64,000 bases of DNA. Origin: Centroscyllium fabricii (lineage: Eukaryota). Shown here in pieces: positions 13,990 through 64,000 of this stretch. The position numbers were made by a program, and so were the translations under genes. The notes beneath the pieces were generated by a model. It was given only the letters and a program-made list of their open reading frames with translations. It made no database searches and was not told the origin of the DNA. Numbering within the stretch: the stretch's first letter is position 1; the number at the start of each line of letters is the position of its first letter. The stretch covers positions 19,902,001 through 19,966,000 of the forward strand of contig JBNRSN020000017.1 in NCBI GenBank assembly GCA_051313645.2. Direction: 5' to 3'.

Positions 13990-16002
13990 TTATATGGCTG
14001 CTGGTAGAAAGGAACACTGGGATCATGATAGTTACGTTGTGATTGTTTGGGACAGGCTCGATGGACCAACTTTTTCTGTCCGTCTTTTCATATGTTTGTA
14101 AATCAATACAAAAAATATATTTTGAGTATTTCATGGGCATCTAATAAATTTAACAGCAGGTGCAGCCCTGTTAATTTAATAAAAATCATAAATAATTAAA
14201 ATTAATGAAAAAAACTTCCTGGTTTTCTGAGACTTCCAGGGTTAATGAAAGTATTTGGCTACTTGCAGCGCATCCATCAAAGAAGAAAAAAAAGCACTTT
14301 GTCCAATTTTCTTTAAGTTATTACAGCACTCAAATGTCTTGCAGCTATGAATCTGTTACTTCAAACACTGGCTGCTGTAATGTGTATTCAGTTATACAAT
14401 CAACCAATAACCATGATGCTGGAAACATAAGCCCAGCTCCACAAATAGATCAACTATTTGTTCAGTTATCAGGGCAGAAAAGTACAAAAGAGTGCACACA
14501 AATGTATTTTGTGAAAGCAAAAGGACAAATGATGTCCAAAATGTAACTTGAAGCTCTCTGCTTCGCTTAGTGAAATTGCGATTCTCATCAATGTGTTACT
14601 GTATTAACCTATACATACCCCGTACTGTTCAATCTTTTCTGACCGCGAATTCAGCGACTCAACGTTAGTGGGGTTTACATGGTCCGCTAACAATTTGAGC
14701 TAAAACATAGTAGGAGGGTCTGTAACCCTCGTTTGTAAAGCAGAAGTGGATCCTTCTGTATACATTGGGTCAAATATACCCCACCCCCACAGAGTTCTAT
14801 TGGATCACTGGCAAACCTTTGGATACGAATCCCTGTGTTACGAAACAAGGTTAACAGAATGCACAAGTCTCAAGGGGATGTAAATAACTGCACAGCAATT
14901 CCCACTACTGAATAACACACTCGCAGCAAGCAAATAACCTATTAGCGCAGCAACCTAATTTGTTTACTGGGGACTTTGTCACAGCAGCGCTGCAGGTCAG
15001 CTATGCGATGCGTTGAATGGATATCTTTAAATCATGGCGTGTCCTGCAAAGTCCACTTCCACCAACACATTTTCTTTACTAAACTCAATCAGCTACTTAA
15101 GTGACAAAAGGAACATGCAGATTTAAAAAAACTTCAATCTGAATAATAATCAAATACAGCAATCAAAAACATGTTATGGACTTGCATCCAGCGGATAGAA
15201 CACGTCATGCACCTCACTAAGCTCACGAATTACTTTATACAAATAAAGGAACAAAAACACCTGGAACTCATCTATGAGGTTTCCTCCACGGGCCGGATGG
15301 CTTCTGGGAGAACTATAAAATATTTTTATGCTGCATTTATGACACAGTTCTGGCACTTGCACCAGCCTGGACATCAGTAACAACTCTAATGCAAATGAGG
15401 CAGTGCTACTGTCTCTGGAAGGACAGAATACCACCTCGAGGAGGTGCTTTACGAGTCTCCCCTACCCCCAACATTGCCAGAGGCACACTGCCACAAACAT
15501 GCAAGTGTAAATGAAAGTTGCTAAAAGATACTTTTCTTGCATTGTTGGCACGCACGAACCAATCTCCAATCTCAGGGAAGTTCCGCAGCCGTGAAATTAA
15601 AGCAACTTTTAACAATTGCAACTTGTGTTTACACAGGTGGAAAATGCCCCAAGGTGATTCCCAAAGGTGTAACAGAAACCAAGCGCCTAGTCAAAGTAGA
15701 ATAGGAGTGGTGACCAAAAGCTTAGTCAAAGAGTTAATGGCAATATTTTCCCTTTATTTCATAAGTAGCAAATTTATAAATACCTTTCTCACTCATGAAA
15801 GAACAGTAAAGACAATGTACTGACAAGGTACCGGATGAATTCCAAAGAGTACATCAGTTAATTATGGAAGGATCGTTGCCACACAATGCTACTCTGGAAA
15901 GTTGATACTTCAATTACAACGACTCCAAGCACAAATCTTGCCCATTTTCAATAGTTAATGTAACTTAGATGTCATGATAAATCTACTGATTACTTGACAA
16001 TA

Positions 16003-16263
16003 CAAGAAGTCACACAACACCAGATTATAGTCCAACAGTTTTATTTTAAATCACAAGCTTTCGGAGCTTCTGCCCCTTCGTCAGGTGAAAGAGACTGACT
16101 TAAAGAACGCACATGTGCGTTCTTTAAGTCAGTCTCTTTCACCTGACGAAGGGGCAGAAGCTCCAAAAGCTTGTGATTTAAAATAAAACTGTTGGACTAT
16201 AATCTGGTGTTGTGTGACTTCTTGCATTTGTCCACCCCAGTCCAACACCGGCACCTCCACATT
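16003..16263. mobile_element. Fold-back Penelope pseudo-LTR pair with two hammerhead motifs
   Basis: Near-perfect 111-bp inverted arms centred at 16113/16114; 14-bp TSD attacttgacaata. Confidence 0.88.
16052..16087 (-). ncRNA. Minimal hammerhead ribozyme, intact core, on the BAIAP2 pre-mRNA strand
   Basis: CAC-CUGACGA-A-GGGGC agaa GCUCC-GAAA-GCUU-GUG, with AAGCUU palindrome. Confidence 0.7.
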
Positions 16264-16557
16264 ATTACTTGACAATAGGCACTGCAGTACAACACAGGGA
16301 TTTTGGAATATGGAGTATGCTGTAGTTGAAGTAAAAACCTTCATATATACTAACATATACTATATTAAAGGATGTGTTCTGCAACATTAATACACCAGGA
16401 AGCTTTTAATAGTGCCTTGATATTGGGATCTTTAAATATTAGTGTGTATTACTTAACACGGTCATATTCTAATATTGAAAGAGTCCAATTTCAAGGCACA
16501 GGTTTCTTTACAACATAATGATGCAGTTATCAGCTGTCTGACTAATTACAGAAGACC

Positions 16558-21082: not shown

Positions 21083-22709
21083 GTTACATTTCCAAGAACA
21101 GAAGCAAAGTCATTTCTACTGAAAGTGAAATTAAAAAAAATAGGAGGGAAAATGCTACGACAGCAGATGGGCATTCACTGCGCTAACAACCCAGGGAATA
21201 GCACAACAATCCCAGAGGGAGGGGAGACCATCAACTCCTCTATGCCGATTCGGAAGGATAAGGTCGTATAAGATCTGAGAATCAAAGCTAAAAACTTCAA
21301 ACTTATTAGCAATAAGCTGAACTAACATTACCTTGTTAACTCGTCAATCTAACTTAACTAATCTTATGCCAATCTTGGATAATGAGCAGAATATCAAATT
21401 GTAATAAGGTAGAGCCCAGCTGTCACAGTTACAGAGATATATATACTTGCCTTTGTAACCTTGTATTAATTCAGTTACTGTACTAACATCTACTCAAGTA
21501 CCTTGGGTACTTTTAATGCTTATTAAAATGCTAAATATACTATCATAAAAGTGTGTTAATAAAGAAATGTTAGTTCATGATTTTGTTGTCAGACTTCCTC
21601 TTTGATGACTTTGGCAAGCAGAAGTTAACTCATTCATTCAGTAGTGTACTGGTTCTCTGAAGGGTGGTTGGTTATATTAGTTATAATTTGTACCGGTTAA
21701 TGCAAGACAGCTCAACTGAGCCACATCTAGCAATCCCTAGGCATGATGGTAAGTTGCCAAATGGTTCTATTGATGGGCAATTATGGTGAAGGAGTTAAAG
21801 ATCTGTCTGAACTTGGGTATAGGTTTACTCACCACAGTACACTGCATGTCAAATTTTGTATTGTCTTCAGTTAACCACATATGAACGCACACACTTGACA
21901 ACTAAATGATAACTGCAACCATCAGTTTTGGTACAAAATTAAATGTAGAATAATACAACATGGCTTTACAAAAGCATTGCAACTACTGAACTACACAAAC
22001 TGAAGTGTTTATTCTGCCCATTCAGGAAGCTTGAAATTATGGCCTTTTTCACCCCAGTTATAACTATGGACTTTAAAGTTAGAAGATCTTCTTGCCCTGG
22101 AATTAATATTGAATATTCTCAATTTATGAAACCATCATTCCGAGGTAAACTAGCTGCATTGTATTTCAAGTGCAAATATTCTGTAACGTTTGTTTTTCCA
22201 ATTTCTTTATGGATGAAAATACATCCACATTTCCTCAGAGCATGTACTTACTTACTAATTGGAGTGTACTCCGTGTTAAATACTCGTCCTTGATGCATCT
22301 CAGGTTATTTTTTTCCAACACAGTGTTTAGAAAGCTTTGAAAAAAAAGCATCTGAAGTGCTGGTGTGTGGAGAGCCCTGTTGATACGCCATGTGGTGTGT
22401 GGAAAGGAAAGCAGATGTGTCCCAGTGAGATCAGCCGAGGGGATTCCCATGGAGCAGGCCTGCTTCCTAGCATTGATTGCAAAGGGAGTACACCAACAAG
22501 AGGTTGATTTTAATTTTTTTTAAATTTGCTGTGCTTCAGCACAATTTTGGTGAACAGAAGGATGGATTTTATTCAGTGTGAAAACAGACGTCAATTCTAG
22601 GGCACGGAGTGCAAGAGCGGTCAGAGGGTTTACAGGAGGCCCAGGGAAAGATGATTTATAAAAGATTGAGAAAAATACCCGAGACAGAGCTGGGGGCAGA
22701 CACAAATTA

Positions 22710-23235
22710 CAGGTTGTGCACCATTAATCCGCCACGGGCGGGACCAGGCCCGTGCCGGGAAACAGAAAAAACCGGGAGAACGAGGTTGGACACTGCGCAT
22801 GCGCACCATTCAAAATGGCCGCGCGCATGCGCACAACATTGGGATTGGCTGGCGCGCGCATGCGCAGATCGGGCACGGGTCCACATTCCCTCTCCATCGC
22901 CTTTCGGGTTGCTGCTGCCGCCGAGCCGGACTCAGGCTGACAGCTGTTGCCTAGTGACTGTCCGCCTCAGTCACGGGGCTCAGCTGTCGGGAAAATAACC
23001 GGCGGCCGTATTGAATTATCTGCGCATGCGCTAACAGTCCGGCGACGCATGCGCAGATCATTCAAAACTCCCGCCACTGTTTTGAATGATCTGCGCATGC
23101 ACTCGGCGCATGCGCAGATCATTCGCTGAAGCCACGATGGCGGCGGCCATCTTGCGCATGCGCAGTGGGGGCAATTTGTGCCGGCAGACTGAAGCTGCCG
23201 GCTATTCAGGACACGGATTTTCGGTGCACAACCTG
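22710..23235. mobile_element. Tigger-type MITE, copy 2 (opposite orientation)
   Basis: TA|CAGGTTGTGCACC...GGTGCACAACCTG|TA, with the same internal motifs. Confidence 0.9.
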
Positions 23236-23924
23236 TATTTACATTTCTAAACAGATTCAATCGTGTTGATCTTTCAAATTTAAATGGATAGACCTCGAAT
23301 TGGTGGTGGTGGGGGGAGGAAAGAGAAGGGGTTGCAGATATTTTTCCCATTGGTGTGAATGTTTGCTGCCTTTAACAATATTGTCAACAAAAATCTATTT
23401 AGCAGTCTATCTTGATGACTATTAACGCATGGTGGCACCAACGAATGGCATTACTAATCTACCGTGACCAGAACTACCAATAATTTTGACCTAAACTTTA
23501 ATATATTCTTTTAAATTAATATCTATATTTAACACTAATGTCTGTAACCTCTGGTTGCAGCAGTTACCCTTTGTTCTGCTGATGGAGAGACTAAAAGCTC
23601 AACCCACCGGTACAGACAGCAATGCGGGGGTGGGGAATGTCCGATAACCAGAAATGAAAATCATGATGCATAATGTCTAGCTAACTGCATGCCTGATGCT
23701 TGTGAAATTTTTCAGACAAAGTAAATGAGCTAATTCCACTGCACCAGCCAAAATGGTTACGGATCAGCTTCATGTAGGAATGGCTGGCAAATGCCAAGCA
23801 TTGGGTAGCAGTGTGACTTGACCTGGCAACTACAGCGCCAAAAAGTGCATATCCTTAGCCACCTCAAGTTTAAACTTACTGTCAGGGAAGTCAAATTAAT
23901 TTGAAACAATTACATAGAAACATT

Positions 23925-27850: not shown

Positions 27851-28889
27851 GCAGGCGGCAGTCTCTCTCAAAATATTTAAATAAGCTTTTCAACTGTCAA
27901 GGAGGTCCAATGAACCACTTGAGCACTAAACTTGGCTTGACAGTGCACTGAAATTATATTCAATATGGGGCCATGCCCAGGCAATGAGAGATGGGTATCC
28001 TAGGGGTTTCATGCTGTTGCACACATGCCAGGTCGGGAACCGACTCTGGAGTTATACTGTCATTTTTGCAACACTTTGAAGGGGAAATCGCTTTGCAACA
28101 ACACAAAATTGTCCGCATCACTGCACCCTTAATACATGTGCATGGTAGTTCTTGTATTGAACCTCTAACCTGAGTAGCAGTATGACCATCTTTATACAAA
28201 GTGTAACAAATTCCCTGTGGAAAGGTTATTAAAAAAGTTGCAAAGGAAGTTAATATATTTTTCATGTACAAAACAGTACTTTTGGAAATCCAATATACAC
28301 AAGCTATCCAAAACAAATTTAGTTATTTTATTCAGTTGGGTTTTTAATTTTCATACCTTATGATGGCTGTGTCATTTTGAAACTATAGCCTTTTCATCAC
28401 AATGAATATTGCAAAATTACATTGCGACTTAGTGGCTGAATCAAAAGATGGATTATAATCAAATAGACACTGACAGAAAGACTTGTCCTATATCATAGGA
28501 CTATAAATGGCATTGCTCTCACGACAGACAGCAGAATTGTTAGTGAAGACAGAGCACAACCTATAAAATCACAATGTTTCGCATTGTTTAAGGATTTATA
28601 TAGCGCTTATTACGTAGTAAAACGTCTCGAGGCGCTTCACAGGAGTATTAAAAGACAAAAAATTAACAGCTCAACAGGGTATTTTGAAGCATACTATCTC
28701 AAGTATTAGCGGCCAATGCAATCTCAGATGTTCCTGGGATCCTTGATTAAAAAAAGTCCTTTTCATAAGATGTTATTTAGTTTCTTTCCTTCCCCCCCCC
28801 CATTTTTCAAAGGCAAATTTGGCCAGTTAATGATAATGATTCCATGTGTTCAAATAAAAGCTTAAAATGCACTAAAATGAAAATATATA

Positions 28890-29367
28890 CAGGTTGAGCA
28901 CCGGTAATCCGGTAACCCAAAAGCCGGCAACTTCAGTCGTCCGGCATAAATCGCCCCGACTGCCCTGCGCATGCGCAATATGGCCGCCACGATTGATGCT
29001 TCGGCGCATGATCTGCGCGTGCGCCACCGAATGCCGAGCGCATGCGCAGATCATTCAAAAAGGGCCGCCGGACGAGCCGGGCCTCCCGTGACGTCAGGGC
29101 GCGGCAGCCGCGCTTTTAATGTGCGGGTCCCGAGCGCCCGCTATGGTGAAGCGCGCGGTTCCCCGGAGCAGCCTACAGGCCGTCATCAGGAGGCACAAAC
29201 CGCAGCGGGGACTCAGCAAGGACGTTCGGCGGCCATTTCCAATGTTGTGCGCATGCGCGCGACCATTTTGAATGGTGCGCGCACTGGCCGGCTTCATTCT
29301 ACCGGTTTTTTCGCTCTACCGGCGTGGGCCTAGTCCCACCCGTGCCGGTAGAACGGGGCTCAACCTG
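28890..29367. mobile_element. Tigger-type MITE, copy 3
   Basis: TA|CAGGTTGAGC...GCTCAACCTG|TA; both ends closely match copy 1. Confidence 0.9.
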
Positions 29368-29620
29368 TATTGATAACTGAAGTATCAGCCGCACAAACGC
29401 AAGTAAATAATAGGCAGCTGCCAAAGACATCTGCCAGTCAAGATGACCACAGAAGTTCCTAAGGGAATGAAATCTCCTACTTTAATGTAGGACTGGGTGG
29501 CAAAATTGGTTAAAGCATGGCGGCCCTTTCAATACTCCATTTGTGTTAGTTTCCAAAGGTAATGTTGTTTGGAGAGCCTAGATGCAAGAACGGAAAAGCC
29601 AAATTAAGAGGGAAAAAAAG

Positions 29621-33494: not shown

Positions 33495-34003
33495 CGTCGG
33501 GACCAGGCCAGTGCCGGACTAGTGAAAAATCGAAACAACTGAAGGCTTGGCGAGTGCATGCGCAGACCATTCAAAAATGGCCGCCGCGCATGCGCAGACC
33601 ATTCAAAAATGGCCGCCGCGCATGCGCAGACCATTCAAAAATGGCCGCCGCGCATGCGCAGACCATTCAAAAATGGCCGCCGCGCATGCGCAGACCATTC
33701 AAAATGGCCACCACGCATGCGCAGACCATTCAAAATGGCCACCACGCATGCGCAGACCATTCAAAATGGCCACCACGCATGCGCAGACCATTCAAAATGG
33801 CCACCACGCATGCGCAGACCATTCAAAATGGCCACCACGCATGCGCAGACCATTTAAAATGGCCACTGCGAATATGCAGACCAGTCATGGAGAGGCCTGC
33901 GCATTGCGAGCGTCCCTGGGATCATGTGGGCCGGCCAGACGGATTCATGCTGGACCACTGAAGTTGCCGGACCATCGGTCCCGGATTAACGGTGCACAAC
34001 CTG
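33495..34003. mobile_element. Tigger-type MITE, copy 4, left end lost, with an internal 10-unit 31/32-bp tandem array (33556-33869)
   Basis: Right TIR GGTGCACAACCTG; units gcatgcgcagaccattcaaaa(a)tggcc(g/a)cc(g/a)c. Confidence 0.85.
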
Positions 34004-40022: not shown

Positions 40023-40109
40023 CCATCTCCTTGGAAGCTTGGCTGTCGCTGGCAAGTTCACCCATTTTCACCAGTGCCTCAAAATAGCCTTTTGCTGCAA
40101 AGGTCACAC
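40023..40109 (-). CDS. BAIAP2: BAIAP2 coding exon 3 (-SVTFAAKGYFEALVKMGELASDSQASKEM-G), IMD/I-BAR domain
   Basis: ttccag|GT GTG ACC TTT GCA GCA AAA GGC TAT TTT GAG ... GAG ATG G|gtaagt; 87 nt, phase 1-1. Matches human GVTYAAKGYFDALVKMGELASESQGSKELG. Confidence 0.96.
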
Positions 40110-41065: not shown

Positions 41066-42780
41066 ATCTTGTTGTGCAAGGTCCCTTGGGTCGGAGCGAT
41101 CATAATAAGATAGAATTGTTCATTAAGATGGAGAGTGAAGTAGTTGACCCTGCTAGGGTCCTGAATTTAAATAATGAAAACTACGATAGCATGGATGAAC
41201 TACAGAATTTGTTCATTCCAGTTTGGCATAAAAATAAAACAAAAAAGGTGACTCAACCATGGCTAATTAGGGATAGCATAAGATCCAAGGAGAGGACATA
41301 TAAATTGGCCAGAAAAAGCAGTAAACCTGAGGATTGGCGGAAGTTTAGGATTCAACAAAGGAGGGCAAAGGGATTAATTGATGGGAAATAGAGTATGAGT
41401 GTAAGCTTGCAGGGAACATAAAAACTGACTGCAAAAGTATTTATAGATATGTGAAGAGAAAAACATTGGTGAAGTTAAGCATAGGTCCCTCGCAGTCAGA
41501 ATCAGGGGAATTTATAATGGGGAACAAAGAAATGGCCGATCAATTTTTGGTTCTGTCTTCACAAAGGAGGACACAAACAACCTCCCAGAGTTGTCGGGGA
41601 ATATAGGGTCTAATGAAAGGGAGGAACTGAAAGTAATCAGTAGTTGTAGAGAAATGGTGTTAGGGAAATTGACGGAATTGAAGGCCAATAAATCACCAGG
41701 ACCTGATAATCTACATCCTAGGGTACTTAAGGAAGTGGCCCTAGAAATAGTAGATGCATTGCTGGTCATCTTCCAAAATTCGATAGACTCTGGAACAGTA
41801 CCCATGGATTGGAGGGTAGCTAATGTTACCCCACTGTTCAAAAAAGGTGGCAGAGAGAAAACGGGGAATTACATCGGTAGTGGGGAAAATGCTAGAGTCC
41901 ATTATAAAAGATGTAATAGCAAAGCACTTGGAAAACAGTGACAGGATCGGACAAAGTCAACATGGATTTACAAAGGGTAAATCGTGCTTGACTAATCCAC
42001 TGGAATTTTTTGAGGATGTAACTGGTAAAATAGATAAGGGAGAACCAGTGGATGTGGTGTATTTGGACTTTCAAAAGGCTTTCGATAAGGTCCCACATAA
42101 AAGGTTAGCGTGCAAAGTTAAGGCACATGGGATTGGGGGCAAGGTATTGACTTGGATAGAGAACTGGTTGGCAGACAGGAAGCAAAGAGTTGGAATAAAT
42201 GGGACTTTTTCCGAGTGGCAAGCAGTGACTAGTGGGGTACCGCAGGGATCAGTCCTTGGAACCCAGCTATTCACAATATATATTAATGATCTAGATGAGG
42301 GAACTAGATGTAATATCTCCAAGTTTGCAGACGACACAAAGCTGGGTGGGCATGTGTGCTGTGAGGAGGATACCGAGAAACATCAGTCTGATTCGGACAC
42401 GTTGGGTGATTGGGCAGAAACATGGCAGATGCAATAGAACGTGGATACATGAGAGGTTAACCACTTTGGTGTCAAAAGCAGGAAGGCAGATTACCTGAAT
42501 GGCAATAAATTGGGAGAAGGGGAAGTGCAACGAGACCTGGGTGTCCTTGTGCGCCAGTCGCTGAAGGTAAGCATGCAGGTGCAGCAGGCGGTTAAGGCGG
42601 CAAATGGTATGTTGGCCTTCGTAGCGAGAGGTTTTGAGTACAGGAACAAGGATGTCTTGCTGCAGTTGTACAGGGCCTTGGTGAGACCACACCTTGAGTA
42701 TTGTGTGCAGTTTTTGGTCACCTTATCTCAGGAAGGATGTTCTTGCCATGGAGGGAGTGCAGCGAAGATTCACCAGGCTG
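41066..42780 (+). mobile_element. Degenerate CR1 ORF2 fragment (end of EN, RT), lacking the 3' tail
   Basis: LDFQKAFDKV, GVPQGSVLG and FADDTKL motifs; frameshifts and deletions. Confidence 0.93.
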
Positions 42781-49037: not shown

Positions 49038-52000
49038 CTCAAAGGTAGTAATCTCAGGATGGCTACCAGTGCCACGTGCTAGTCAGAGTAGAAATAGAAG
49101 GTTATTTCAGATGAATAAGTGGCTAGAGGAATGGTGCAAGGTGGAGCGATTCAAATTCCTGGGACATTGGAACCGGTTCTGGGGGAGGTGGGACCAGTAC
49201 AAACAGACAGTTTGCACCTGGGCCGGACTGGGACCGATGTCCTAGGGGAGTGTTTGCTAGTGCTGTGGGGGAGGGTTTAAACTAAAATGGCAGGGGGTTG
49301 GGAACCTGTGCATGGAGACAGGAAAGGGAAACAAGGATAGAAGCAACAGACAGGAAGGAGAAAAGCAAAAGTGGCAGTCAGAGAAATCAAGGGTTTAAAT
49401 CAAATGTGGCCACAGTAAAACATAATTCTAAAAGGTCTAAGAGTGTTAAAAAAAAGCCTGAAAGCGTTTTGTTTTAATGCGAGGAGCATTCGTAATAAGG
49501 TGGATGAATTAACTGCACAAATAGATGTAAATGGATATGATGTGATTGGGATTACGGAAACATGGCTCCAGGGTGACCATGGCTGGGAACTCGACATCCA
49601 GGGGTATTCAATATTCAGGAAAGACAGGCAAAAAGAAAAAGGAGGTGGGGTAGCATTGCTGGTTAAAGAGATTAACACAATAGTAAGGAAGGATGTTAGC
49701 TCTGATGACGTGGAATTTGTATGGGTAGAGCTGAGAAATACGAAGGGGCAGAAAACGTTAGTGGGAGTTGTGTACAGACCCCAAACAGTAATGCTGAGGT
49801 TGGGGATGGCATTAAACAGGAAATTAGAGACGCCTGCAATAAGCGCACAGCAATTATCATGGGTGACTTTAATCTACATATAGATTGGGCTAACCAAATT
49901 AGTAACAATACTGTGATGGAGGAATTCCTAGAGTGTATACGGGGTGGTTTCTGGACCAATATGTTGAGGAACCAACTAGAGATCAGGCCATTTTAGACTG
50001 GGTATTATGCAATGAGAAAGGATTAATTAGCAATCTTGTTGTGCGAGGCCCCTTAGGGCAGAGCGATCATAATATGATCGAATTCTTCATTCAGATGGAG
50101 AGTGAAGTATTTGACTCAGAGACCAGGGTCCTGAATTTAAATAAAGGAAACTACAATGGTATGAAGTGCGACTTGGGTAGGATTGATTGGGGAATGTCAC
50201 TCAAAGGGTTGACGGTGGATAGGCAATGGCAAACATTTAAAGATCACATGGATGAACTACAGAATTTGTTCATCCCTGTTTGGCATAAAAATAAAACAAA
50301 AAAGGTGAATCAACTGTGGCTAACAAGGGAAATTAGGGATAGCATAAGATCCAAGGAGAGGATATATAAATTGGCCAGAAAAAGCAGCAAACCTGAGGAT
50401 TAGGAGCAGTTTAGGATTCAGCAAAGGAGGACAAAGGGATTAATTAAGAGGGGGAAAATAGAGTATGAGAGTAAGCTTTCAGGGAACATAAAAACTGACT
50501 GTAAAAGCTTCTATAGATATGTAAAGAGAAAAAAATTGGTGAAGTAAAGCATAGGTCCCTTGCAGTCAGAATCAGGGGAATTTATAATGGGGAACAAAGA
50601 AATGGCAGACCAATTAAATACATACTTTGGTTCTGTCTTCACAAAGGAGGACACAAATAACTTCCCAGAGATGTCGGGGAACATAGGGTCTAATGAGAGG
50701 GAGGAAATGAAAGAAATCAGTATTTGTAGGGAAATGGTGTTATGGAAATTGACGGGATTGAAGGCCGATAAATCGCCAGGGCTGATAATCTACATCCTAG
50801 GGTACTTAAGGAAGTGGCCCGAGAAATAGTAGATGCATGGTTGGTCAGCTTCCAAAATTCTATAGACTCTGGAACAGTTCCCATGGATTGGAGGGTAGCT
50901 AATGTTACCCCACCATTCAAAAAGGGTGGTAGAGAGAAAACGGGGAATTATAGACCGGTAAGCCTAACATCGGTAGTGGGGAAAATGCTAGAGTCCATTA
51001 TAAAAGATATAATAGCAAAGCACTTGGAAAACAGTGACAGGATCAGACAAAGTCAACATGGATTTACAAAATGTAAATCGTGCTTGACTAATCTACTGGA
51101 ATTTTTTGAGATGTAACTGGTAAAATAGATAAGGGAGAACCAGTGGATGTGGTGTATTTGGACTATCAGAAGGCTTTCGATAAGGTCCTGCATAAGAGAT
51201 TAACGTGTAAAGTTAAGGCACATGGGATTGGGGGCAAGGTACTGGACTTGGATAGAGAACTGGTTGGCAGACAGGAAGCAAAGAGTTGGAATAACTCTGT
51301 TCCTGGGACTAGGGACAGGGTCACTGGCTAAGCTTTGGAAGCTAAGCAGAGCCAGGCCTGGTTAGTACTTGGATGGGTGACCACCAGGGAATACCAGGTG
51401 CAGAAGGTCACGAAAGGAGCCCCGGGGAGGGGCGGTTGGCTGAAGATTGTCGGAATGATGGAAAGATGGAATGGCGGCGTGCACAGACGCAGCTGCTTTG
51501 CTGGACTCTTGGAGGCTTGGAAGATCACATTTCGTTGTTCATGTACTTGTACATTGTATAATGACAATAAAGTTGAATTATTATTATTATTATTATTAAA
51601 CGGGTCTTTTTCCGAGTGGCAGGCAGTGACTAGTGGGGTACTGCAGGGATTGGTCCTTGGACCCCAGCTATTCAAAATATATATTAATGATCTAGACGAG
51701 GGAACTAGATGTAATATCTCCATGTTTGCAGATGACACAAAGCTGGGTGGGCGTGTGTGTTGTGAGGAGGATGCCGAGAAACTCCAGTATGATTTGGACA
51801 GGTTGGGTGATTGGGCAGAAGCATGGCAGATGCAATATAATGTGGATAAATGCGAGGTTATCCACTTTGGTGGCAAAAACAGGAAGGCAGATTATTATCT
51901 GAACGGCAATAGATTGGGAGAAGGGGAAGTGCAGCAACGCGATCTGGGTGTCCTTGTGCACCAGTCGCTGAAGGTAAGCATGCAGGTGCAGCAGGCGGTG

Positions 52001-52660
52001 AAGAAGGCAAATGGTATGTTGGCCTTCATAGCGAGAGAGCTCGAGTACAAGAACAAGGATGTCCTGCTGCAGTTGTACAGGGCCTTTCTGAGACCACATG
52101 TTGAGTATTGTGTGCAGTTTTGGTCACCTTATCTGAGGAAGGATGTTCTTGCCATGGAGGGAGTGCAGCGAAGATTCACCAGGCTGATACCTGGGATAGC
52201 AGGAATGATGTATGAGGAGAAATTGGATCGATTGGGCTTATACTCGCTGGAGTTTAGAAGAATGAGAGGGGATCTCATTGAAACTTATAAAATTCTAACA
52301 GGACTAGACAGACGAGATGCAGGAAGGATGTTCCCGATGGTCAGGAAGTCCAAGACCAGGGCTCACAGGCTAACGATAAGCGGTAAGCCATTTAGAACAG
52401 AGATGAGGAGGAATTTCTTCACCCAGAGAGTGGTGAACCTGTGGAATTCTTTACCACAGAAGGTAGTTGAGGCCAATTCATTAAATATATTCAAGAAGGA
52501 GTTAGATATATTTCTTAAGGCTAAAGGGATCGAGGGATATGGAGAGAAAGCAGGGACAGGGTACTGAATTTGGATGATCAGCTATGATCTCATTGAATGG
52601 CGGAGCAGGCTCGAGGGGCCGAATGGCCTACTCCTGCTCCTATCTGCTATGCTTCTATGT
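49038..52660 (+). mobile_element. Long degenerate CR1/HER1 LINE (ORF1 esterase end, APE endonuclease, RT, 3' tail)
   Basis: NARSIRNK, GITETWL, MGDFN, SDHN and FADDTKL motifs; several stops and frameshifts; interrupted by a 5S-SINE. Confidence 0.95.
51295..51598 (+). mobile_element. 5S-derived composite SINE, copy B (most complete)
   Basis: Inserted between CR1 ggaataa and acggg; 5S segment 51337-51407; (att)n tail. Confidence 0.9.
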
Positions 52661-53308
52661 TTGGAGCCGGGTTTTACATTTTTACAACTTTCACTTCCCT
52701 CCATGCCTCCAACCCACCCGTTCTTGCCTCTGAAAATTCCGGCCTACATCTTACACACATATCGAGTACAATGCCTGGCTACACTTTCCATGCAACTTTC
52801 TTCCTTTATTTCGCAACGTTACTTGACAGACAAACTCCCAACTAATGAATACAATCTCAGCTTGAGCACCCCGGTAGTGTAGTGCAGTAATTAAGACAAT
52901 CGCTTAAATCCACTGTGGTTGCAAGATTAAAATCCCAGCAGTGGCTGCTTCCGTTCAAAATCCTCCACCACACGGTGCACCTAGTTTCATCGGTTCTTAT
53001 TGGACTGCTAGACGGAACACATTGCAGAAGCAAAGTGCTGTAGTTTGGGGAGAAAACGGACACTTCTGTCTCGCCCCACAGCTATTGGCTGAGTAGACAA
53101 CAACATTCGGATCAGAAGCTGTGGAGGAGTCAGCGACCGGGTCACCCACCCAGCTGGAGGAGAATGCGTGGAGATGAGCAAACATATTTACATAAGCAAA
53201 AATAAAAAAAAGGACAAAACATATGTAGACATCAATAATATAAATGAATATTACAAATAAAATCAGGTTATAAAGCATGATTAATACCAAAGTGGACAAA
53301 TGACTTAC

Positions 53309-53384
53309 TGGAAAGTGTCTTTTCATAAGACTTTCCCATTGCAATGAAGTTTCTCAGGCTGGGGTTGAACTGGTCCATAATGGT
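53309..53384 (-). CDS. BAIAP2: BAIAP2 coding exon 2 (TIMDQFNPSLRNFIAMGKSYEKTLS-), IMD/I-BAR domain
   Basis: ttttatag|ACC ATT ATG GAC CAG TTC AAC CCC AGC CTG ... TCC A|gtaagt; 76 nt. Near-identical to human TIMEQFNPSLRNFIAMGKNYEKALA. Confidence 0.96.
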
Positions 53385-54751: not shown

Positions 54752-55747
54752 CCCATTACCGTCAGTCAGAGCTCATATGCCAAGTTAGATGTAGTAGTTC
54801 AGTAATTTGCCAAATTGATACAGAGTACAGGTACTAGTTATTCCCAACTATTATTAAACGGAATTCATCAAGTATGTGCTAACAAACATTTAGAATAATG
54901 ACTGTGGCAGCTTTGGGAAGACAAATGGCATTGGGCAACTTTCAGACATTGGAACCACACATTTGATACAAAAACAGGCCTCTTATTTAAAAGAAGCTGA
55001 TGTTGTGTTGGCCGACAAAGTGCTGATGATCAGAAGTTGATAATGCCACACTATTTGTCTGAATTTTCTGTGGCTTTTATATTGAGCTCTACCCACAGTT
55101 ACAATGGACTACATAACTTTATAACAAAGAACTTTGAAGTATTTTGAACAACTGTAAAATTCAGAATTATCACATTTGAACCAGATCATTGGTGTCTATT
55201 ATTCTAATTTTTCATGTGCATTACAGTCCAGTATCTATCAGTCATCGAGTTACCCAGATTCTCCCTTTACAATGCATGGCTATGAAAAAGTATGCACATA
55301 AACAAGTTTCAGTGTCAAATATTGGGCAGAAATCTACCCATCTTAGTTTCAGGGTGTGAAAGAGATAGTATTGCTTATCTCAGGCATCTACCTTCTTGGA
55401 AAAAAGACACATTACTCTCTTCCTTGTCCAATTTTCTTCGCTTGCCAGAACTCCTTTCTGCTTCCTGGGGCTACCATGGAGAAGCAGGTGGCCTCCCTCA
55501 GCACCTGCCCACCACATTGGGGCCAAGATTGAAAACTCAGCTGCTAAATAGTAAATCAGACTTTTGGATCACCACTCCGAGGTGGCTCATGTTAATGTTC
55601 TAACATGCTGCATCACAGCTCCAGGCAGATTCTGCGTAATAATTATAATTTGCATTCGATAGGCAATAACTTCATGCAAATGAATGCTAATTAATCTGGC
55701 TGACTATTAAAGCATCATTCACACTACAAGGTCAGTTACTTAAGATG

Positions 55748-55943
55748 CAAAAAGTCACACAACACCAGATTTATAGTCCAACGGTTTTATTTTAAATCAC
55801 AAGCTTTCGGAGCTTTTGCCCGACGAAGGGGCAAAAGCTCCGAAAGCTTGTGATTTAAAATAAAACCGTTGGACTATAAATCTGGTGTTGTGTGACTTTT
55901 TGCATTTGTCCACCCCAGTCCAACACCGGCACCTCCACATTAT
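55748..55943. mobile_element. Fold-back Penelope pseudo-LTR pair
   Basis: ~77-bp perfect inverted arms around gacgaa; 14-bp TSD agttacttaagatg. Confidence 0.88.
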
Positions 55944-56100
55944 AGTTACTTAAGATGGTACTGGAGCTCAGAGGGAAGGGAAATTGTGTTTGCAATTCCC
56001 CACATAATGAACACCAGGCCTCCATCAAACTGTGTGCGTATGTGAAATGATTCCCTGGATGGAAGGAAAGGGAGGCTGAGACTGTACAGATGTGCTTTAC

Positions 56101-57316: not shown

Positions 57317-60099
57317 TAAGTGTGAAATTTGACCCATAACTCAAAGAAAAAATTGGCATGTGATATTAATAACGAAGAATACTTTTTCTGCACTCATTTT
57401 TTAATGTCTGGCCTTCATCCATCTCGAACAGATTACAAACTGAAGTGTGAAGCACTTTAAAGCCTCATGGATCGAAATTTTGGCTCAAAGGCCTTCCACA
57501 GTTTCTTCACCTTGATTTTATTGGGTGACAAAAACTGGGAACTATGGGATGTCTCAGTTTGCCCAGCAGCTTGCTTGAAAGCCAAATTCAATTCAGACGG
57601 TCCTCTATAAAACTACCATTTCTTCTCCCCCAACAGCCACCCCCACCCCGAGGGACTTTGCTTCTCATTTTTGAGGTCTTTGATCCGCCACAGGGGCAGT
57701 TACACTATATTGGCTCCTGGTGATGAATGTTGTTTACTGTTGTTCTGTACATTTAGCAAACATTAGCACAAAACAAGCAATACCAGCATTCTTAATGTGC
57801 TGTACATGTTACATGTAGGAATAACACTTGCAGTCAGGAGTATGACGGGAATGGTATTTCCTAAAATCACAAAATTGACCAGTTGTCCTCCATTACAATG
57901 CATTTGTTCAAATTCCCCCATACAAAAAAACTGTATCTTTAAAAATTTACTTAGAAATGTTATTGACCCAACATAAATTACGATATTAGCCATTAAAGCT
58001 GGTTTGTTATTGGTTTTCTAGAGTCCAATTTACTGGTTTCACTTTAGGATTTGATTTTCTTCTAAAAAGGTGTTAGTTTTCAAATGAAAAGTAGCACAGA
58101 AAAAAAACACCTTGGAGGAAGGAAGTATTGATTTGTGGCAAAAATGGTAAAGACAAATGGCAAAGTAAGCAAGAACCAGAACTGCCAGAAAAGGGGGAAA
58201 CCAACAGACTTGAGTATTGTTAGGATTTTAGGATTTTAAAAATCCAGAAAACTTTTTAAAATACCCTCTGCTACTGCTCAAGACATTCTTCTGTTTCATA
58301 ACATGACCAAAAGCAAACTAACCTAATTGACTCTAGGTTTGATTCTGCAGCTGCTTAGGGACCAAACTGCTTAAAAAATAACTCGCTGATGTACAACGTC
58401 TGATCTTAGAATGGAAATGAGTTGATTAACATTGACCCCACCCCCACCCAGTGCTGCTCGTTTTACTGACTAAGATGCACCCTAACCACAACAAAGTGGA
58501 CAATTAATGCATCAATATTCTCCATTGTATTTGGTCCTAGCCTTTCCCTGTACTGCCACAAGCAGGGCCATGGAAGATGAGACAAGTATAAGGCAGCCAT
58601 TCCTTATTAAATATGGCAAGCATGTACTGCATGTGTGTTCATGGAGGAGAGATATTGCAGCGCCCATCAACCAACCAGGTGCCACAAAACTGCTATCCCT
58701 ATGCCAACTCCTGATTTGCACAGTGCCACCTGTGGTATGTCAGGACACCCATCTAAAGTGGTATGGCTAAAAAAAACAATGAAACACATCAGATATTCTG
58801 GGAAGGAGAATAAATCATTTGCCTTCAGCGAATCTCAAACCTACTGCATTTCAATAGTAGTACGAGGCAAATACTTCATCCCTGCTGCTCCCTTTAAATT
58901 GTGTCTTCAAGAAGAGATAAGCTGCATTTGAAATGTTATGCCCTTGAGATTATAACATGCTCCGTGAAATAGGACCTGAATACCATCACCAGTTTTCTGT
59001 TGCTGACAGTCATGATTACTCATCTATCATTTCAGTGCTGCTGTGGCATCTTTCTGCTGCCCGCCCACTGCACAACAGCAAGAAAGGCAGGCACCAACTG
59101 GCTTCTTCCGGAGAACCGGCACCTACAGGGAATTCAAGCCTGAATCTACGACAGCACAAATTTGACTGTACAACCCCCCCAATGCTTTTCTTTCATGCAT
59201 TTTGTTATGGAAATTGTGACAGCTTTGAATTCCTTGTAACAAGTTAAGCCAGCAGCAAGCTGATAATGTGACGATCCAAGTTTCGGTTGTACAGCTGACA
59301 TTTATGATGGCTGCATCCTTTTATAACGACAGGTTAATCAGAAAGCTCAAAGCCGGTTCTGCAGTCGGGGAAATGCATTCTACAAAGTGTGAAATAAGAT
59401 CCCAGGTTGGAGGGTGCAGAAACCACCCACTGCAGATCTGACGGGATAAAGTCTCGAAACCAGATCACCACCGATTCTAATTGCAGTAAACATCTTTCAT
59501 CCAATGTTGATGCTGCAGAGTTCACACACCACATAACGTGGAACAGAGCCAAAGTATGTGATAGGGTGGGGAGGGGGAGTATGGGCAGCATCAATGTAAA
59601 ACATTTTTGGGCAATCTTGAAAGAGTCCCTTAAGGCAACCCCTGGAGATCATATCTTCACGACAAAATGATTGCCTGCTGATAATTAAATTAACTCAAAG
59701 ATCAAGCTTGTAGGTATACAGTATTGGGTATATTGATTTTACTCAACAATAAATTCTTTAGCAGTTGATAAAAAATTAAATGGCCTACAACTGTACAAAA
59801 TACAAGTTAGCCACCAAAGTCATAAGCTGAGGAGCAAAGATCCCAAACTAGTTGGAAAATGTTAGTAGCTATTTAGATGGACTGATTGCTATAAGTCTCC
59901 AAGATAATCTAACATATTTTAAAAAACATTTCACACTGTAAAACTGACGTTTATTATTTTTAAATCACACAGGATAAACATAATATTATGCACACACACA
60001 CATTGACCTGACACGTCATCCTGGATCATAACACAGCTTGTGCAAAATTAGTGAACTCTACTGAATAAGCAGAGGGCAGCAATTCTCTTGCACTAACTG

Positions 60100-60626
60100 C
60101 ACACTGGGTCCGCAGCGCACACTGGGTCCGCAGTGCACACTGGGTCCGCAGCGCACACTGATGCCGCAGCGCACACTGATGCCGCAGCGCACTGATGCCG
60201 CAGCGCACACTGATGCCGCAGCGCACACTGATGCCGCAGCGCACACTGATGCCGCAGCGCACACTGATGCCGCAGCGCACACTGATGCCGCAGCGCACAC
60301 TGATGCCGCAGCGCACACTGATTCCGCAGCGCACACTGATGCCGCAGCGCACACTGATGCCGCAGCGCACACTGATTCCGCAGCGCACACTGATTCCGCA
60401 GCGCACACTGATTCCGCAGCGCACACTGATTTCGCAGCGCACACTGATTTCGCAGCGCACACTGATTTCGCAGCGCACACTGATTGCGCACACTGATTTC
60501 GCAGCGCACACTGATGCCGCAGCGCACACTGATTCCGCAGCGCACACTGATTCCGCAGCGCACACTGATTCCGCAGCGCACACTGATTGCGCACACTGAT
60601 TCCACAGCACACACTGATTCCACAGC
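60100..60626. repeat. 18-bp minisatellite (~29 units) in intron 1
   Basis: Unit gcagcgcacactgatgcc with variants gggtcc, gattcc and gatttc. Confidence 0.97.
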
Positions 60627-61209
60627 GTGGCCTTTGAAGGGACTGCGAATTTTCCAGAGCCTTCCATTGTAAATGAACTTTCTCTGGTACTGAGCTGCTA
60701 CAGATTAATAAAAATGCAAACTTTCATCAGAAAGGAGTGAACTACTTTTCACACACAAAAAAAACACATGCATGGGAACCTTTTATGCAGAGAAAAGCAA
60801 ATTCCTTTGCAATTAAACATCCAAAAGGCATTCGATACCCCATGGTATCACCAACAAAAGGTGAAAAGACCTTATAGATGTGTGCAAGGAACTAGAGGCA
60901 GTATTTCAGGTTAGGGCTCCGATGATTAGCAAACTGCACAAGCTTTGCTTTCGTATCTCATGACATCAGCTGGAGTCCACGCCTCAGACGCACTGCCTTG
61001 TTGGAATCCTCCCCCACCCAGCCAGCAGCTCCCATTCCTACACAGTGAACATTTATACTCCCAAGAATTGTCTAAAAGAGCAATTTTCAACTAAACATTT
61101 GCCAGTTTGGAAGGGGCAAAACAAAAACAAAAAAGTTTAAATACACTTGATCTTGCTCAACAGCACACGTGATTTAAAAAACAAAAATAAGGCAGGTTCC
61201 TTTAGATTT

Positions 61210-61358
61210 ATGATGATGTGGAGTTTGGACTGGGGTGGACAAATGTAAGAAGTCACACAAACACCAGGTTAGAGTCCCAACAGCTTTCCCCAAAGCTTGT
61301 GATTTCAAATAAAGCTGTCGGGACCTATAACCTGGTGTTGTGTGTGTTGACTTCTTAC
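61210..61358. mobile_element. Older inverted Penelope family A fragment
   Basis: gtaagaagtcacacaaacaccaggtt...aacctggtgttgtg...gacttcttac. Confidence 0.7.
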
Positions 61359-61737
61359 CTTTTAAGATTCAGTACAATTAAAGGATGAACACCACCAGTG
61401 CAAAAAGCCAGCAGGGCTGTCTGGAAACTTCTAAAAAAATAAATGTGAAGCAGAGACTAAAAAACTTTTTTTTTAAAAACACAACCTAGAAATCTGCATT
61501 ATTAGTATGTGGAGCATTATTAGTATGTGGAGCATTATTAGTAGGTGGAGGCATAGTTGTGAATCAATCAAAGAAAAGTCTCCAGTAAGTGGACACTGAC
61601 TGGGATTTTCAACAACAACAAAAAAGAGGAAAAAAAGTTAAGAAGTTAATGGTTGGCGTTAGATTCTAATACAATACATATATATATCTATATAATGTTG
61701 GAAGGTAGCCGGTGCCAACACTGGGACACTCACTCAC

Positions 61738-61785
61738 CTTGTAGACGTTCTCGGTCATTCGGTGCACCTCATCCGTGCGAGACAT
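61738..61785 (-). CDS. BAIAP2: BAIAP2/IRSp53 coding exon 1 (MSRTDEVHRMTENVYK)
   Basis: Minus strand reads agaccATG TCT CGC ACG GAT GAG GTG CAC CGA ATG ACC GAG AAC GTC TAC AAG|gtgagt. It matches the IRSp53 N-terminus (human MSLSRSEEMHRLTENVYK), has a phase-0 donor and lies in a CpG island. Confidence 0.95.
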
Positions 61786-62760
61786 GGTCTTCTCGGCGCA
61801 GATCACAAATGCAATCTCAAACTTACTCCACGGCGCCAATAAAAAGGCTCGCTCGCCCCCTGAAACTTTTTTTTTCTCTCACTTTCTCTCTCTCTCTCTT
61901 TGACAGTAATTCCCACCCACACACACACAGCGAGAGAGAACTTCGGCGCTTCTCCCACTTCAAAACGCCGACTCCAGCGCCCGTCGCCTAGGAACGCGGC
62001 TGAGGAGGACTCCCCGCTTTCGCTTGACAACCCAACCTGACGGCTGGGGCTGGGTTTGTGCGGCGGGGATTGGCCCGGGCTGGCGGAGTCCCCGCGTGGC
62101 CATTGGCCAATCTCAACGTCAATCACTCGTTAGTGCCCCCGCCCCCTCCCTTATGCGGCGGTGATTGGCCCGGGCTGGCGGAGTCCCCGCGCGGCCATTG
62201 GCTAATCCCAACGTCAATCACTTGTTAGTGCCCCCGCCCCCACTCTGCGGCGGGGATTGGCCCGGGCTGGCGGAGTCCCCGCGCAGCCATTGGTCAATCC
62301 CAACGTCAATCACTCGTTAGTGCCCCCGCCCCCCCCTATGCGGCGGTGATTGGCCCGGGCTGGCGGAGTCCCCGCGCGGCCATTGGCTAATCCCAACGTC
62401 AATCACTCGTTAGTGCCCTCGCCCCCTCCCCATGCGGCGGGGATTGGCCCGGGCTGGCGGAGTCCCCGCGCGGCCATTGGTCAATCTCAACGTCAATCAC
62501 TCGTTAGTGCCCACGCCCCCCCACCCCTATGCGGCGAGGATTGGCCCGGGCTGGCGGAGTCCCCATGCGGCCATTGGCCAATCCCAACGTCAATCACTCG
62601 TTAGTGCCCCCGCCCTCCCTCCCCTATGCGGCGGGGATTGGCCCGGGGCTGGCGGAGTCCCCGCGCGGCCATTGGTCAATCACAACGTCAATCATTCATT
62701 AGTGCCCCGCCCCCTCCAGTCGCGCTAGGTTGCCTCGGCACGGACTGACGTCACGGCCAC
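61740..62760 (-). promoter_or_regulatory. BAIAP2: CpG-island promoter and 5' UTR of BAIAP2
   Basis: CpG-dense and GC-rich, directly upstream of the ATG. Contains many ATTGG/CCAAT and CCCCGCCCC motifs, a full CRE TGACGTCA at 62746-62753 and an RFX X-box-like GTCGCCTAGGAAC at ~61983-61995. Confidence 0.8.
62059..62716. repeat. Promoter tandem array, 7 copies of a ~93-bp unit
   Basis: Unit tgcggcggggATTGGcccgggctggcggagtccccgcgcggccATTGGtcaatcccaACGTCAatcactcgttagtgCCCCCGCCCCtccct repeated 7 times. Confidence 0.95.
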
Positions 62761-63583
62761 CCTCTCCAGGGGACCTGGCCAGCAGATTTTGTTGCAGTGA
62801 AGATCAAAGAGGGATTTATTTAAAAAATATGCGTCTATACCTTAAAAGAAACGTAATTCACTTCCATAGCAACCAGTTAATAACGTGTTAGAAATCCCCT
62901 TTGCATTGTGCGGCATATACGTAATATTGGCAGCTCAGCTGGGATTTTTTTTCCATGCTCGTCATTATGCTGCAGTTTTTTTGGAAGCAGCCACTGAACG
63001 TTCATTGTAAAAGGGTAATTATTGCAAATTAATCCAATGTGAGCTCATCTGGTGGGCACGGTGAATCATTCTCAACCAGCGTTTGCTCAGATGCTCAGGG
63101 ATGACTTAGCCGAGCCTACTTTACATTAACACTGTTCCAAACTAATCACCATAAATGAGTTGCTGCCAGGGCTTCAGCCACAAAACCTTGCGCAGTTTGC
63201 AGCACTCTCTCCGAATCGTGATGTATAGCTTGCTGCTGCTGCAAATTTATACAAGGGTTTCCCCCCCTACTGTGAGTTACTCTTGTTTCCCTGAATGCAA
63301 GAGTCTAGACATTTATCCCATTCCATGGCTCCCTCTTGAAGGAGACTCCCCTGGTTTTTTTGGTGACAAAATATGCACAATCATCCGGACTAGGGACATT
63401 TTTGTCTTGTAAGGAAATTCCCTTTTTTTAAATCATTCTGTGTGTTTTGCAGCATTTGACCCCCCTTGCGACTGTGCCTCATTGCTCGCAGACTGAGGTG
63501 TTAAAATATGTTAATATGCCTTTGTGTCTCTAGGGTGAGATGTGGAAGAGATCGGATTTCTCCCTTCCTCCGATATGTGATCT

Positions 63584-63687
63584 TTAAGTCAGTCTCTGTC
63601 CACCTGACAAAGGGGCAGAAGCTCCGAAAGCTTGTGATTTAAAATAAAACCATTGGACTATAATCTGGTGTTGTGTGACTTCTTGCA
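63584..63687 (+). mobile_element. Penelope family A fragment with a mutated hammerhead (CUGACAA)
   Basis: Matches 16122-16225. Confidence 0.8.
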
Positions 63688-63943
63688 CAAATCTATGTAA
63701 CCGCTTTCCAATAGTCTTTTTCTGTTTTAAAAAAAATGCTTGCTGTACGTTTCAATGGACTTTTCATACCTCTTTTAGGAAAATAAATGTTTGAGGTTGG
63801 AAAATGTAAGTAATTGTACAAGTCTCCCACGGTCCCATCTTTTTCAAATGCATCCCTGAGAAAGATGAGTATCTGTCTGACTGCGTCCCTCAGGGGTTTT
63901 TAATATTCTGCCAGTTGCTGGCCATACAGTGGTGACATCAGGA

Positions 63944-64000
63944 ATACAGAAACACAGAAGATAGGAGCAGGAGTAGGCCATTCGGCCCTTCGAGCCTGCT
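63944..64000 (-). mobile_element. SINE/CR1 3' tail running off the window
   Basis: acagaagataggagcaggagtaggccattcggcc. Confidence 0.8.

Follow-up and report, generated by a model that had tools for sequence, protein, structure and literature searches.

Upstream of the BAIAP2 start codon of Centroscyllium fabricii lie seven head-to-tail units on the minus strand (62059-62718), each of which carries the sequence-defined features of a DECA-CCAAT element: GAnnGAC exactly 11 bp 5' of a same-strand CCAAT box, a second CCAAT box within 30-50 bp, a GC box close by and a likely promoter position. Judged by these features, the array would work like a DECA-CCAAT promoter. The explanation that we favour, and consider reasonably probable, is that a native TALE/NF-Y/Sp2-type module, likely the BAIAP2 proximal promoter, was multiplied stepwise by minisatellite duplication, is probably fixed and has a modest effect on output. 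The literature on DECA-CCAAT elements, in the parts drawn on here, describes single composites or a few CCAAT pairs, unlike the array, which repeats the whole module seven times. Among the matches listed in a limited open-access literature, no published report was found of a BAIAP2 promoter array or of a tandemly amplified DECA-CCAAT module. All positions are those of the 64,000-nucleotide stretch that was analysed (the window), and the main features are collected in Table 1.

Architecture of the array and its unit

The units begin at 62059, 62154, 62246, 62339, 62433, 62530 and 62627 and measure 95, 92, 93, 94, 97, 97 and 92 bp (mean 94), and TRF describes the array with a period of 97, 6.9 copies and 89% matches. 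The array starts 274 bp, and its first ATTGG lies 284 bp, upstream of the BAIAP2 ATG (61785). The first-pass annotation had already described a 7-fold amplified unit of ~93 bp with 14 CCAAT boxes starting ~270 bp upstream of the ATG, all of which holds, but it had carried the array on to 62760, whereas the repeats end at about 62718.

Along the gene strand, the order within a unit is GC box, 12 bp (unit 7: 11 bp), TGATTGAC, 11 bp, CCAAT and CCAAT. The two CCAAT boxes of a unit repeat at 33 bp in six of the seven units and at 34 bp in unit 7, so that the period of 33 bp previously given for each unit applies to all but the last; between units the CCAAT-to-CCAAT spacing is 59-64 bp. All 14 CCAAT boxes (ATTGG on the forward strand) and all seven DECA cores are intact across the array, and the GC box that had been called usual is present as exact CCCCGCCCC in four of the seven units and as CCGCCC in five, those of units 4 and 5 being degenerate. 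Every unit has a C-rich tail of 11-17 bp with a G-quadruplex score of -1.5 to -2.1, and the unit period is close to nine helical turns (8.8-9.3). Units 1 and 6 possess an additional opposite-strand CCAAT at 62107 and 62578, where ATTGG and CCAAT overlap as a palindrome; this plus-strand box has been lost from the other five units. Hairpin strength was inconsistent in four folds covering three of the seven units (z -2.66, -1.86, -2.07 and -0.42), and no Rfam match was found in the array, the five matches in 58000-64000 all lying below the gathering score.

Table 1 Features of the BAIAP2 gene start and of the upstream array.
Feature	Position	Strand	Remarks
BAIAP2 exon 3, 87 bp	40023..40109	-	
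BAIAP2 exon 2, 76 bp, IMD domain	53309..53384	-	
BAIAP2 exon 1 coding part, 16 codons	61738..61785	-	GT donor at 61737
Unique CpG-rich, ATG-free stretch; putative core promoter and 5' leader	61786..62058	-	CpG o/e, ATG count
X-box-like motif, not above chance	61983..61995	+	1 mismatch to RFX consensus
7-unit promoter-module array (92-97 bp units)	62059..62718	-	TRF, motif counts, alignment
Unit 1, most proximal: TGATTGAC core + 11 bp + CCAAT	62102..62125	-	second CCAAT 62069-62073
Unit 2 DECA-11bp-CCAAT composite	62197..62220	-	
Unit 3 DECA-11bp-CCAAT composite	62289..62312	-	
Unit 4 DECA-11bp-CCAAT composite	62382..62405	-	GC box degenerate
Unit 5 DECA-11bp-CCAAT composite	62476..62499	-	GC box degenerate
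Unit 6 DECA-11bp-CCAAT composite	62573..62596	-	
Unit 7, most distal, DECA-11bp-CCAAT composite	62671..62694	-	extra TGATTGAC abutting its CCAAT
Full CRE palindrome	62746..62753	.	single, outside array

We read TGATTGAC as a DECA core. GAnnGAC-N11-CCAAT is found in all seven units, always on the gene strand; when spacers of 6-17 bp were scanned the array matched at 11 bp only, and the pattern occurs at none of the 177 CCAAT boxes that lie outside the array in the 64-kb window. The spacer keeps its length in all units though 3 of the 12 variable columns fall within it. With the seven array copies counted as one observation, as in all chance tests here, the composite turned up in 11 shuffled units out of 100,000, a value that overstates significance somewhat because the pattern was searched, and chosen, after the sequence had been seen; a shuffled window is expected to contain 0.09 such composites. 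When unit 3 was dinucleotide-shuffled 100,000 times, 197 of the shuffles had two CCAAT boxes on one strand at a distance of 30-35 bp.

The published rule for the TALE/NF-Y/Sp2 composite is GAnnGAC-11bp-CCAAT, with GAC at nucleotides 15-17 and CCAA at nucleotides 29-32 of its model site (bioRxiv 10.64898/2026.02.16.706105), and the spacer was counted here by the convention of that preprint, whose structure models lose cooperativity at 13 bp and show clashes at 8-9 bp. Compared with the decamer motif TGATTGACAG (PMC6023610), the array decamer agrees at 8 of 10 positions, with a PREP half-site that ends in GT instead of AG; a natural Sp2-promoter site likewise departs from AG (GACgg; bioRxiv 10.64898/2026.02.16.706105). 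Tandem CCAAT boxes at Sp2/NF-Y sites are typically 30-50 bp apart (mean ~35; PMC4368557), a range that includes the 33-34 bp of all seven units. Pairing of TALE factors with NF-Y is known from zebrafish and mouse (PMC6023610, 10.1101/720102, PMC11802806). The further statement that a CCAAT spacing of ~32-33 bp typifies multi-NF-Y promoters is right for p300 recruitment at G2/M promoters, for which a review gives 33 bp (PMC9448500), but it is not general, as the spacings preferred genome-wide in K562 are 24-28 and 35-37 bp (PMC4889920).

In the first pass, ACGTCA had been read as a half-CRE. The hexamer is indeed present in all seven units, but is better read as part of the TGATTGAC DECA core 11 bp from CCAAT, whose PREP half-site overlaps the half-CRE. 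That CREB/ATF-type bZIP factors, and not TALE factors, read the site appears quite improbable, although such binding is compatible with the favoured explanation and the factors could compete. The positional bias of ATF2/ATF3 and FOS near CCAAT (PMC7793273), the presence of TGACG in every unit and the full CRE 28 bp beyond the array would fit bZIP binding. However, the 8-mer matches the CRE palindrome at only 6 of 8 positions, its end would lie 7 bp from CCAAT, less than the reported 10-12 bp, and the PBX half-site TGAT is perfect in the array units. TGACG by itself also arises in 10,981 of 100,000 shuffles, as against 11 for the composite.

The full CRE was annotated correctly and is one of four in the window, where 0.51 are expected. 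The X-box said to flank the array on its other side does not rise above chance: the window holds 10 one-mismatch matches to an RFX consensus against 5.57 expected, and 10 of 100 shuffles reach that number. A second X-box-like motif at 62729, beside the CRE, was rejected, having two mismatches and being one of 97 such matches against 70.9 expected. Beyond this X-box-like motif and the CRE (62729-62753) a TATA-like TATTTAAA is found at 62817 on the plus strand, which makes a divergent transcript possible.

The gene start and its predicted promoter

The gene had been named as BAIAP2, and this identity is borne out. Three ordered exons are collinear on the minus strand with canonical splice sites and matching phases, exon 2 matches Pfam IMD and is identical to IRSp53 at 21 of 24 residues (E=2.4e-9, vs E=0.024 for BAIAP2L2), and all four protein matches of a 47-residue exon-1 query are of the teleost BAIAP2 type. 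When 17 further long frames, out of 167 listed, were scanned against Pfam, they gave two reverse transcriptases and no second host gene. The in-frame leader at 61786-61809 on the minus strand is similar to the extended N terminus of teleost baiap2a proteins, whose Met lies eight codons earlier (18/23 identical over leader and exon 1). The codon of this upstream teleost Met is TTT here and is followed by GTG; translation may begin at a near-cognate codon in 61786-61809, or an upstream start may have been lost there. Orthologous leaders, sought via extended proteins, were matched by four teleost sequences only and by no chondrichthyan.

Between the ATG and the array there is one opposite-strand CCAAT and no GC box. 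Nearly every upstream element that can be recognised therefore comes from the array. CpG o/e reaches 0.95 in 61700-62058 and 0.87 in the array, while the flanks have 0.22 and 0.47; with a window mean of 0.54 and higher values in many repeats, however, richness in CpG is no diagnostic mark here. The interval from 62760 to 61786 has 11 ATGs on the gene strand, every one of them within the array, where the DECA-linked CCAAT of each unit overlaps one of them; they open ORFs of 3-47 codons, and no uORF of the array reaches the start of the BAIAP2 coding frame. The 316 nt before the start codon are free of ATG, as in 346 of 5000 shuffles (p ~0.07, borderline), and the same holds for the 273 nt of leader outside the array, as in 539 of 5000.

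The median distance of NF-Y upstream of start sites is 94 bp, and when NF-Y is lost initiation moves upstream into uORFs (10.1101/369389). From this median distance, transcription is predicted to start near 61970-62015. The array thus stands where a proximal NF-Y promoter would be expected, upstream of a CpG-rich, ATG-free leader, which agrees with the proximal-promoter position proposed earlier and makes the array the likely proximal promoter module of BAIAP2. Near the predicted start, TTTGAA, which we take to be the CHR consensus, occurs at 61964-61959 on the minus strand after a GC-rich stretch; the hexamer is at chance level, shuffled sequences containing it in 774 of 10,000 cases for 150 bp and in 3146 of 10,000 for 273 bp. 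The multi-CCAAT promoters of the G2/M genes cyclin B2 and cdc25C share the 33-bp CCAAT spacing with the array, but they have a few CCAAT boxes and a defined CDE/CHR (PMC9448500, PMC1802594), compared with the chance-level hexamer here.

Divergence of the units and origin of the array

Variation is found at 12 of 80 core columns, a count that omits the C-rich tails and a base inserted in unit 7; no two units are identical, and pairs of them show 1-7 differences (mean 4.5, 5.6%). Units two apart differ by 3.0/80 and neighbours by 5.0/80, and only 40 of 5040 orderings do as well. The units share substitutions in a pattern, with two linked variants common to units 2 and 4 and one variant common to units 3, 5 and 7, and units 2-3 differ from units 4-5 at 3 of 160 positions (1.9%), which would be the youngest dimer step. 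This alternating similarity suggests that monomer duplication was followed by dimer duplication and argues against assembly stutter. The sequence thus points to stepwise duplication of the array.

It is extremely improbable that the array is an assembly artefact in which the assembler, or errors in the reads, multiplied one unit. Sequencing indels are common in C-rich runs, and the length differences among the units fall in just such runs, but the substitutions are shared in patterns and all change G/C to A/T, no unit pair is identical, and the window is free of N. The assembly could still have under-called the copy number. Origin from a vector or plasmid was rejected, with no match among 72,556 plasmids.

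Unit divergence is ~28x, and the youngest step ~9x, the diversity of 0.002 (0.2%) in the epaulette shark (PMC10587355), a comparison that takes its value from another species and assumes that the array does not mutate much faster. As divergence far exceeds this allelic diversity, the expansion is likely older than today's alleles, provided that the array's own mutation rate is not much higher. It is probably a genuine, old event and not assembly stutter, and the label of a recent expansion is left without support. Dating by the pedigree rate of 7e-10 per generation (PMC10587355) gave an implausible tens of millions of generations, and the rate was used qualitatively only. Traces of older units were sought on both sides and were not supported: the left flank (61977-62041) weakly resembles a decayed 'unit 0', but its local alignment score was matched by 88 of 1000 shuffles, and for the right flank 604 and 435 of 1000 shuffles scored as well as the candidates.

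These values bear directly on the idea of a recent polymorphic promoter VNTR whose copy number tunes the IRSp53 level, possibly under selection, which we regard as unlikely. Here no two units are identical and even the youngest step exceeds shark allelic diversity by the factor given above. Support could be drawn from the ABO CBF/NF-Y minisatellite, where four repeats gave more reporter transcription than one (PMC2988417), but the four-repeat allele failed to explain the in vivo phenotype studied there. Likewise, association with expression is twice as likely for human VNTRs that lie no more than 100 bp from a start site, but only ~6% of the tested genic VNTRs show it (PMC8024321). Several CCAAT pairs are present in the strongest Sp2 peaks (PMC4368557), and a unit period near nine helical turns together with intact CCAAT boxes and DECA cores throughout would also suit a tuned array. 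However, retention of the motifs is not significant: no column varies among the 16 of the motifs (p=0.055) or the 23 of the extended motif (p=0.012), but purifying selection becomes non-significant once G/C columns are conditioned on (p=0.16).

The variable columns are all G/C (12/55 G/C vs 0/25 A/T, p=0.014), and each of the 13 derived alleles has A/T in place of G/C, six of them as CpG transitions (p=0.088 vs other G/C sites), which makes past methylation possible. Such a pattern might be expected if the proximal unit alone worked and the other six were inert passengers, partly methylated and decaying, a possibility that we consider rather unlikely. It would agree with the decay of two of the seven GC boxes (units 4 and 5), with unit 7 being furthest from the majority sequence (4/80), and with the GC-rich minisatellites found elsewhere in the introns, some of which carry NRF1/YY1-like motifs. 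However, CpG o/e of the array is still 0.87, every distal unit retains perfect DECA and CCAAT cores, and the excess of CpG transitions (6/126 per cell, vs 9/259 at other G/C sites) is smaller than the ~2.3-fold excess (15/250 vs 38/1439) of a control dispersed repeat family (9 copies of >=200 bp, shorter matches dropped). NF-Y is moreover reported to bind repeats even within unmarked chromatin (PMC12065363). The array lies 3.2% from its majority sequence, compared with 6.6% in the abundant dispersed family (9 copies, one outlier at 74% identity).

TRF lists 28 rows in the window; besides the array these include five minisatellites of high GC content (0.56-0.74), two of which are rich in what we presume to be NRF1-like motifs and lie inside a dispersed family. 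Amplification of motif-bearing units is therefore common here, which lowers the surprise of finding it at BAIAP2. The dispersed CpG-rich family (458-622, 33556-33887 and about 22700-23240 and 28880-29370) has internal 31-bp tandem units, 10.6 copies of them at 33556, with motifs that we name NRF1-like and YY1-like by assumption. Intron 1 has an 18-bp GC-rich minisatellite at 60099-60627 (30 copies, CpG o/e 1.08), some 1.1 kb away from exon 1. A short dispersed repeat occurs at 61225-61362, 15990-16265, 55736-55946 and 63573-63687, with some inverted pairs forming hairpins, and its copy at 61240-61364 gives weak Rfam microRNA matches below the gathering score. Two LINE reverse-transcriptase remnants lie on the plus strand (41066-42780 and 50247-52662), one with an open frame of 411 codons. 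The best named matches of the intronic LINE reverse transcriptase are to Chiloscyllium, Mobula, Hypanus and Leucoraja at 70-77% identity, against 51% for the best named teleost match (the top four matches, unnamed, are left out), which makes a chondrichthyan host likely.

Alternatively, a solo LTR or other element could have inserted here, its repeated U3 enhancer being co-opted as the promoter, as for human LTR12. LTR12 and other LTR families carry repeated NF-Y-bound CCAAT modules (PMC12065363), and a self-comparison of 64 kb has little power for a low-copy family. Still, this origin appears very improbable. No copy of the unit exists elsewhere in the window (best outside match E=0.051), the interval 61363-63572 is without dispersed self-matches, the longest flanking direct repeat is 4 bp (tested at the array edges; true element ends may differ), and no gene-strand AATAAA is found between array and ATG. 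The geometry differs too, as double CCAAT boxes in LTRs are typically 19 bp apart (PMC4889920) and the TALE sites of MER57 lie 3', about 50 bp away (PMC12065363). LTR12/ERV9 resembles the array in the tandem-like arrangement of repeated NF-Y modules, but it is a dispersed retroviral element that pairs CCAAT with MAF sites (PMC12065363), and no hallmarks of an element were found at the array.

Proposed mode of action and comparison with known promoter repeats

Parallels are found among minisatellites. Like the CBF/NF-Y minisatellite of ABO, the array consists of tandem units with an NF-Y site in each, and for ABO the copy number has been proposed to scale transcription (PMC2988417). The ABO repeat, however, has one or four copies about 4 kb upstream and has been shown to be polymorphic (PMC2988417), unlike the array at BAIAP2, which is proximal, has a 94-bp multi-factor unit in seven diverged copies and was read from one haplotype. 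The human promoter eVNTRs of AS3MT, ZNF232 and CSTB are similar start-site minisatellites with factor-binding motifs (PMC8024321), and the head-to-tail array adjoining a gene start shares this feature of promoter VNTRs; but a repeat counts as an eVNTR when genotyped differences in its length go with expression (PMC8024321), whereas the array represents one haplotype. Copy number could still vary by unequal exchange in the array. The array is probably a DECA-CCAAT promoter module enlarged by ordinary minisatellite processes and related in kind to the NF-Y minisatellite of ABO.

Under the favoured explanation of a native module multiplied stepwise, PBX/PREP would bind TGATTGAC in each unit, and NF-Y would occupy the CCAAT box 11 bp downstream of the DECA core as well as the second CCAAT box. 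Sp2 would bridge PBX/PREP and NF-Y, while Sp1/3 would bind the GC box. The array may in this way widen the stretch kept free of nucleosomes and hold the start of transcription to a point about 60-100 bp downstream of unit 1. Transcripts that begin within the array would likely be at a disadvantage, because every DECA-linked CCAAT overlaps an ATG that opens a short uORF. The proximal one or two units would then set the start site, and the distal copies would form a redundant, enhancer-like reservoir whose effect on output is less than proportional.

A bolder reading takes the array as a seven-fold multimer of the entire TALE/NF-Y/Sp2 platform, with a copy number that still differs among members of a shark lineage and sets IRSp53 dose like a rheostat. 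Such an array would be the evolved counterpart of a synthetic multimerised reporter, with built-in uATGs cancelling array-internal transcripts. We consider this reading decidedly unlikely.

If the module acts as proposed, the DECA-11bp-CCAAT rule would be extended from mammals and zebrafish to cartilaginous fishes, and the array would offer a natural 1-to-7 series on whether TALE/NF-Y/Sp2 platforms add, saturate or widen the open region. It would also mean that minisatellite processes can amplify a whole multi-factor promoter module, beyond a single site. Should the distal copies be neutral, the array would be a promoter minisatellite of the usual sort, built around a known element in good form.
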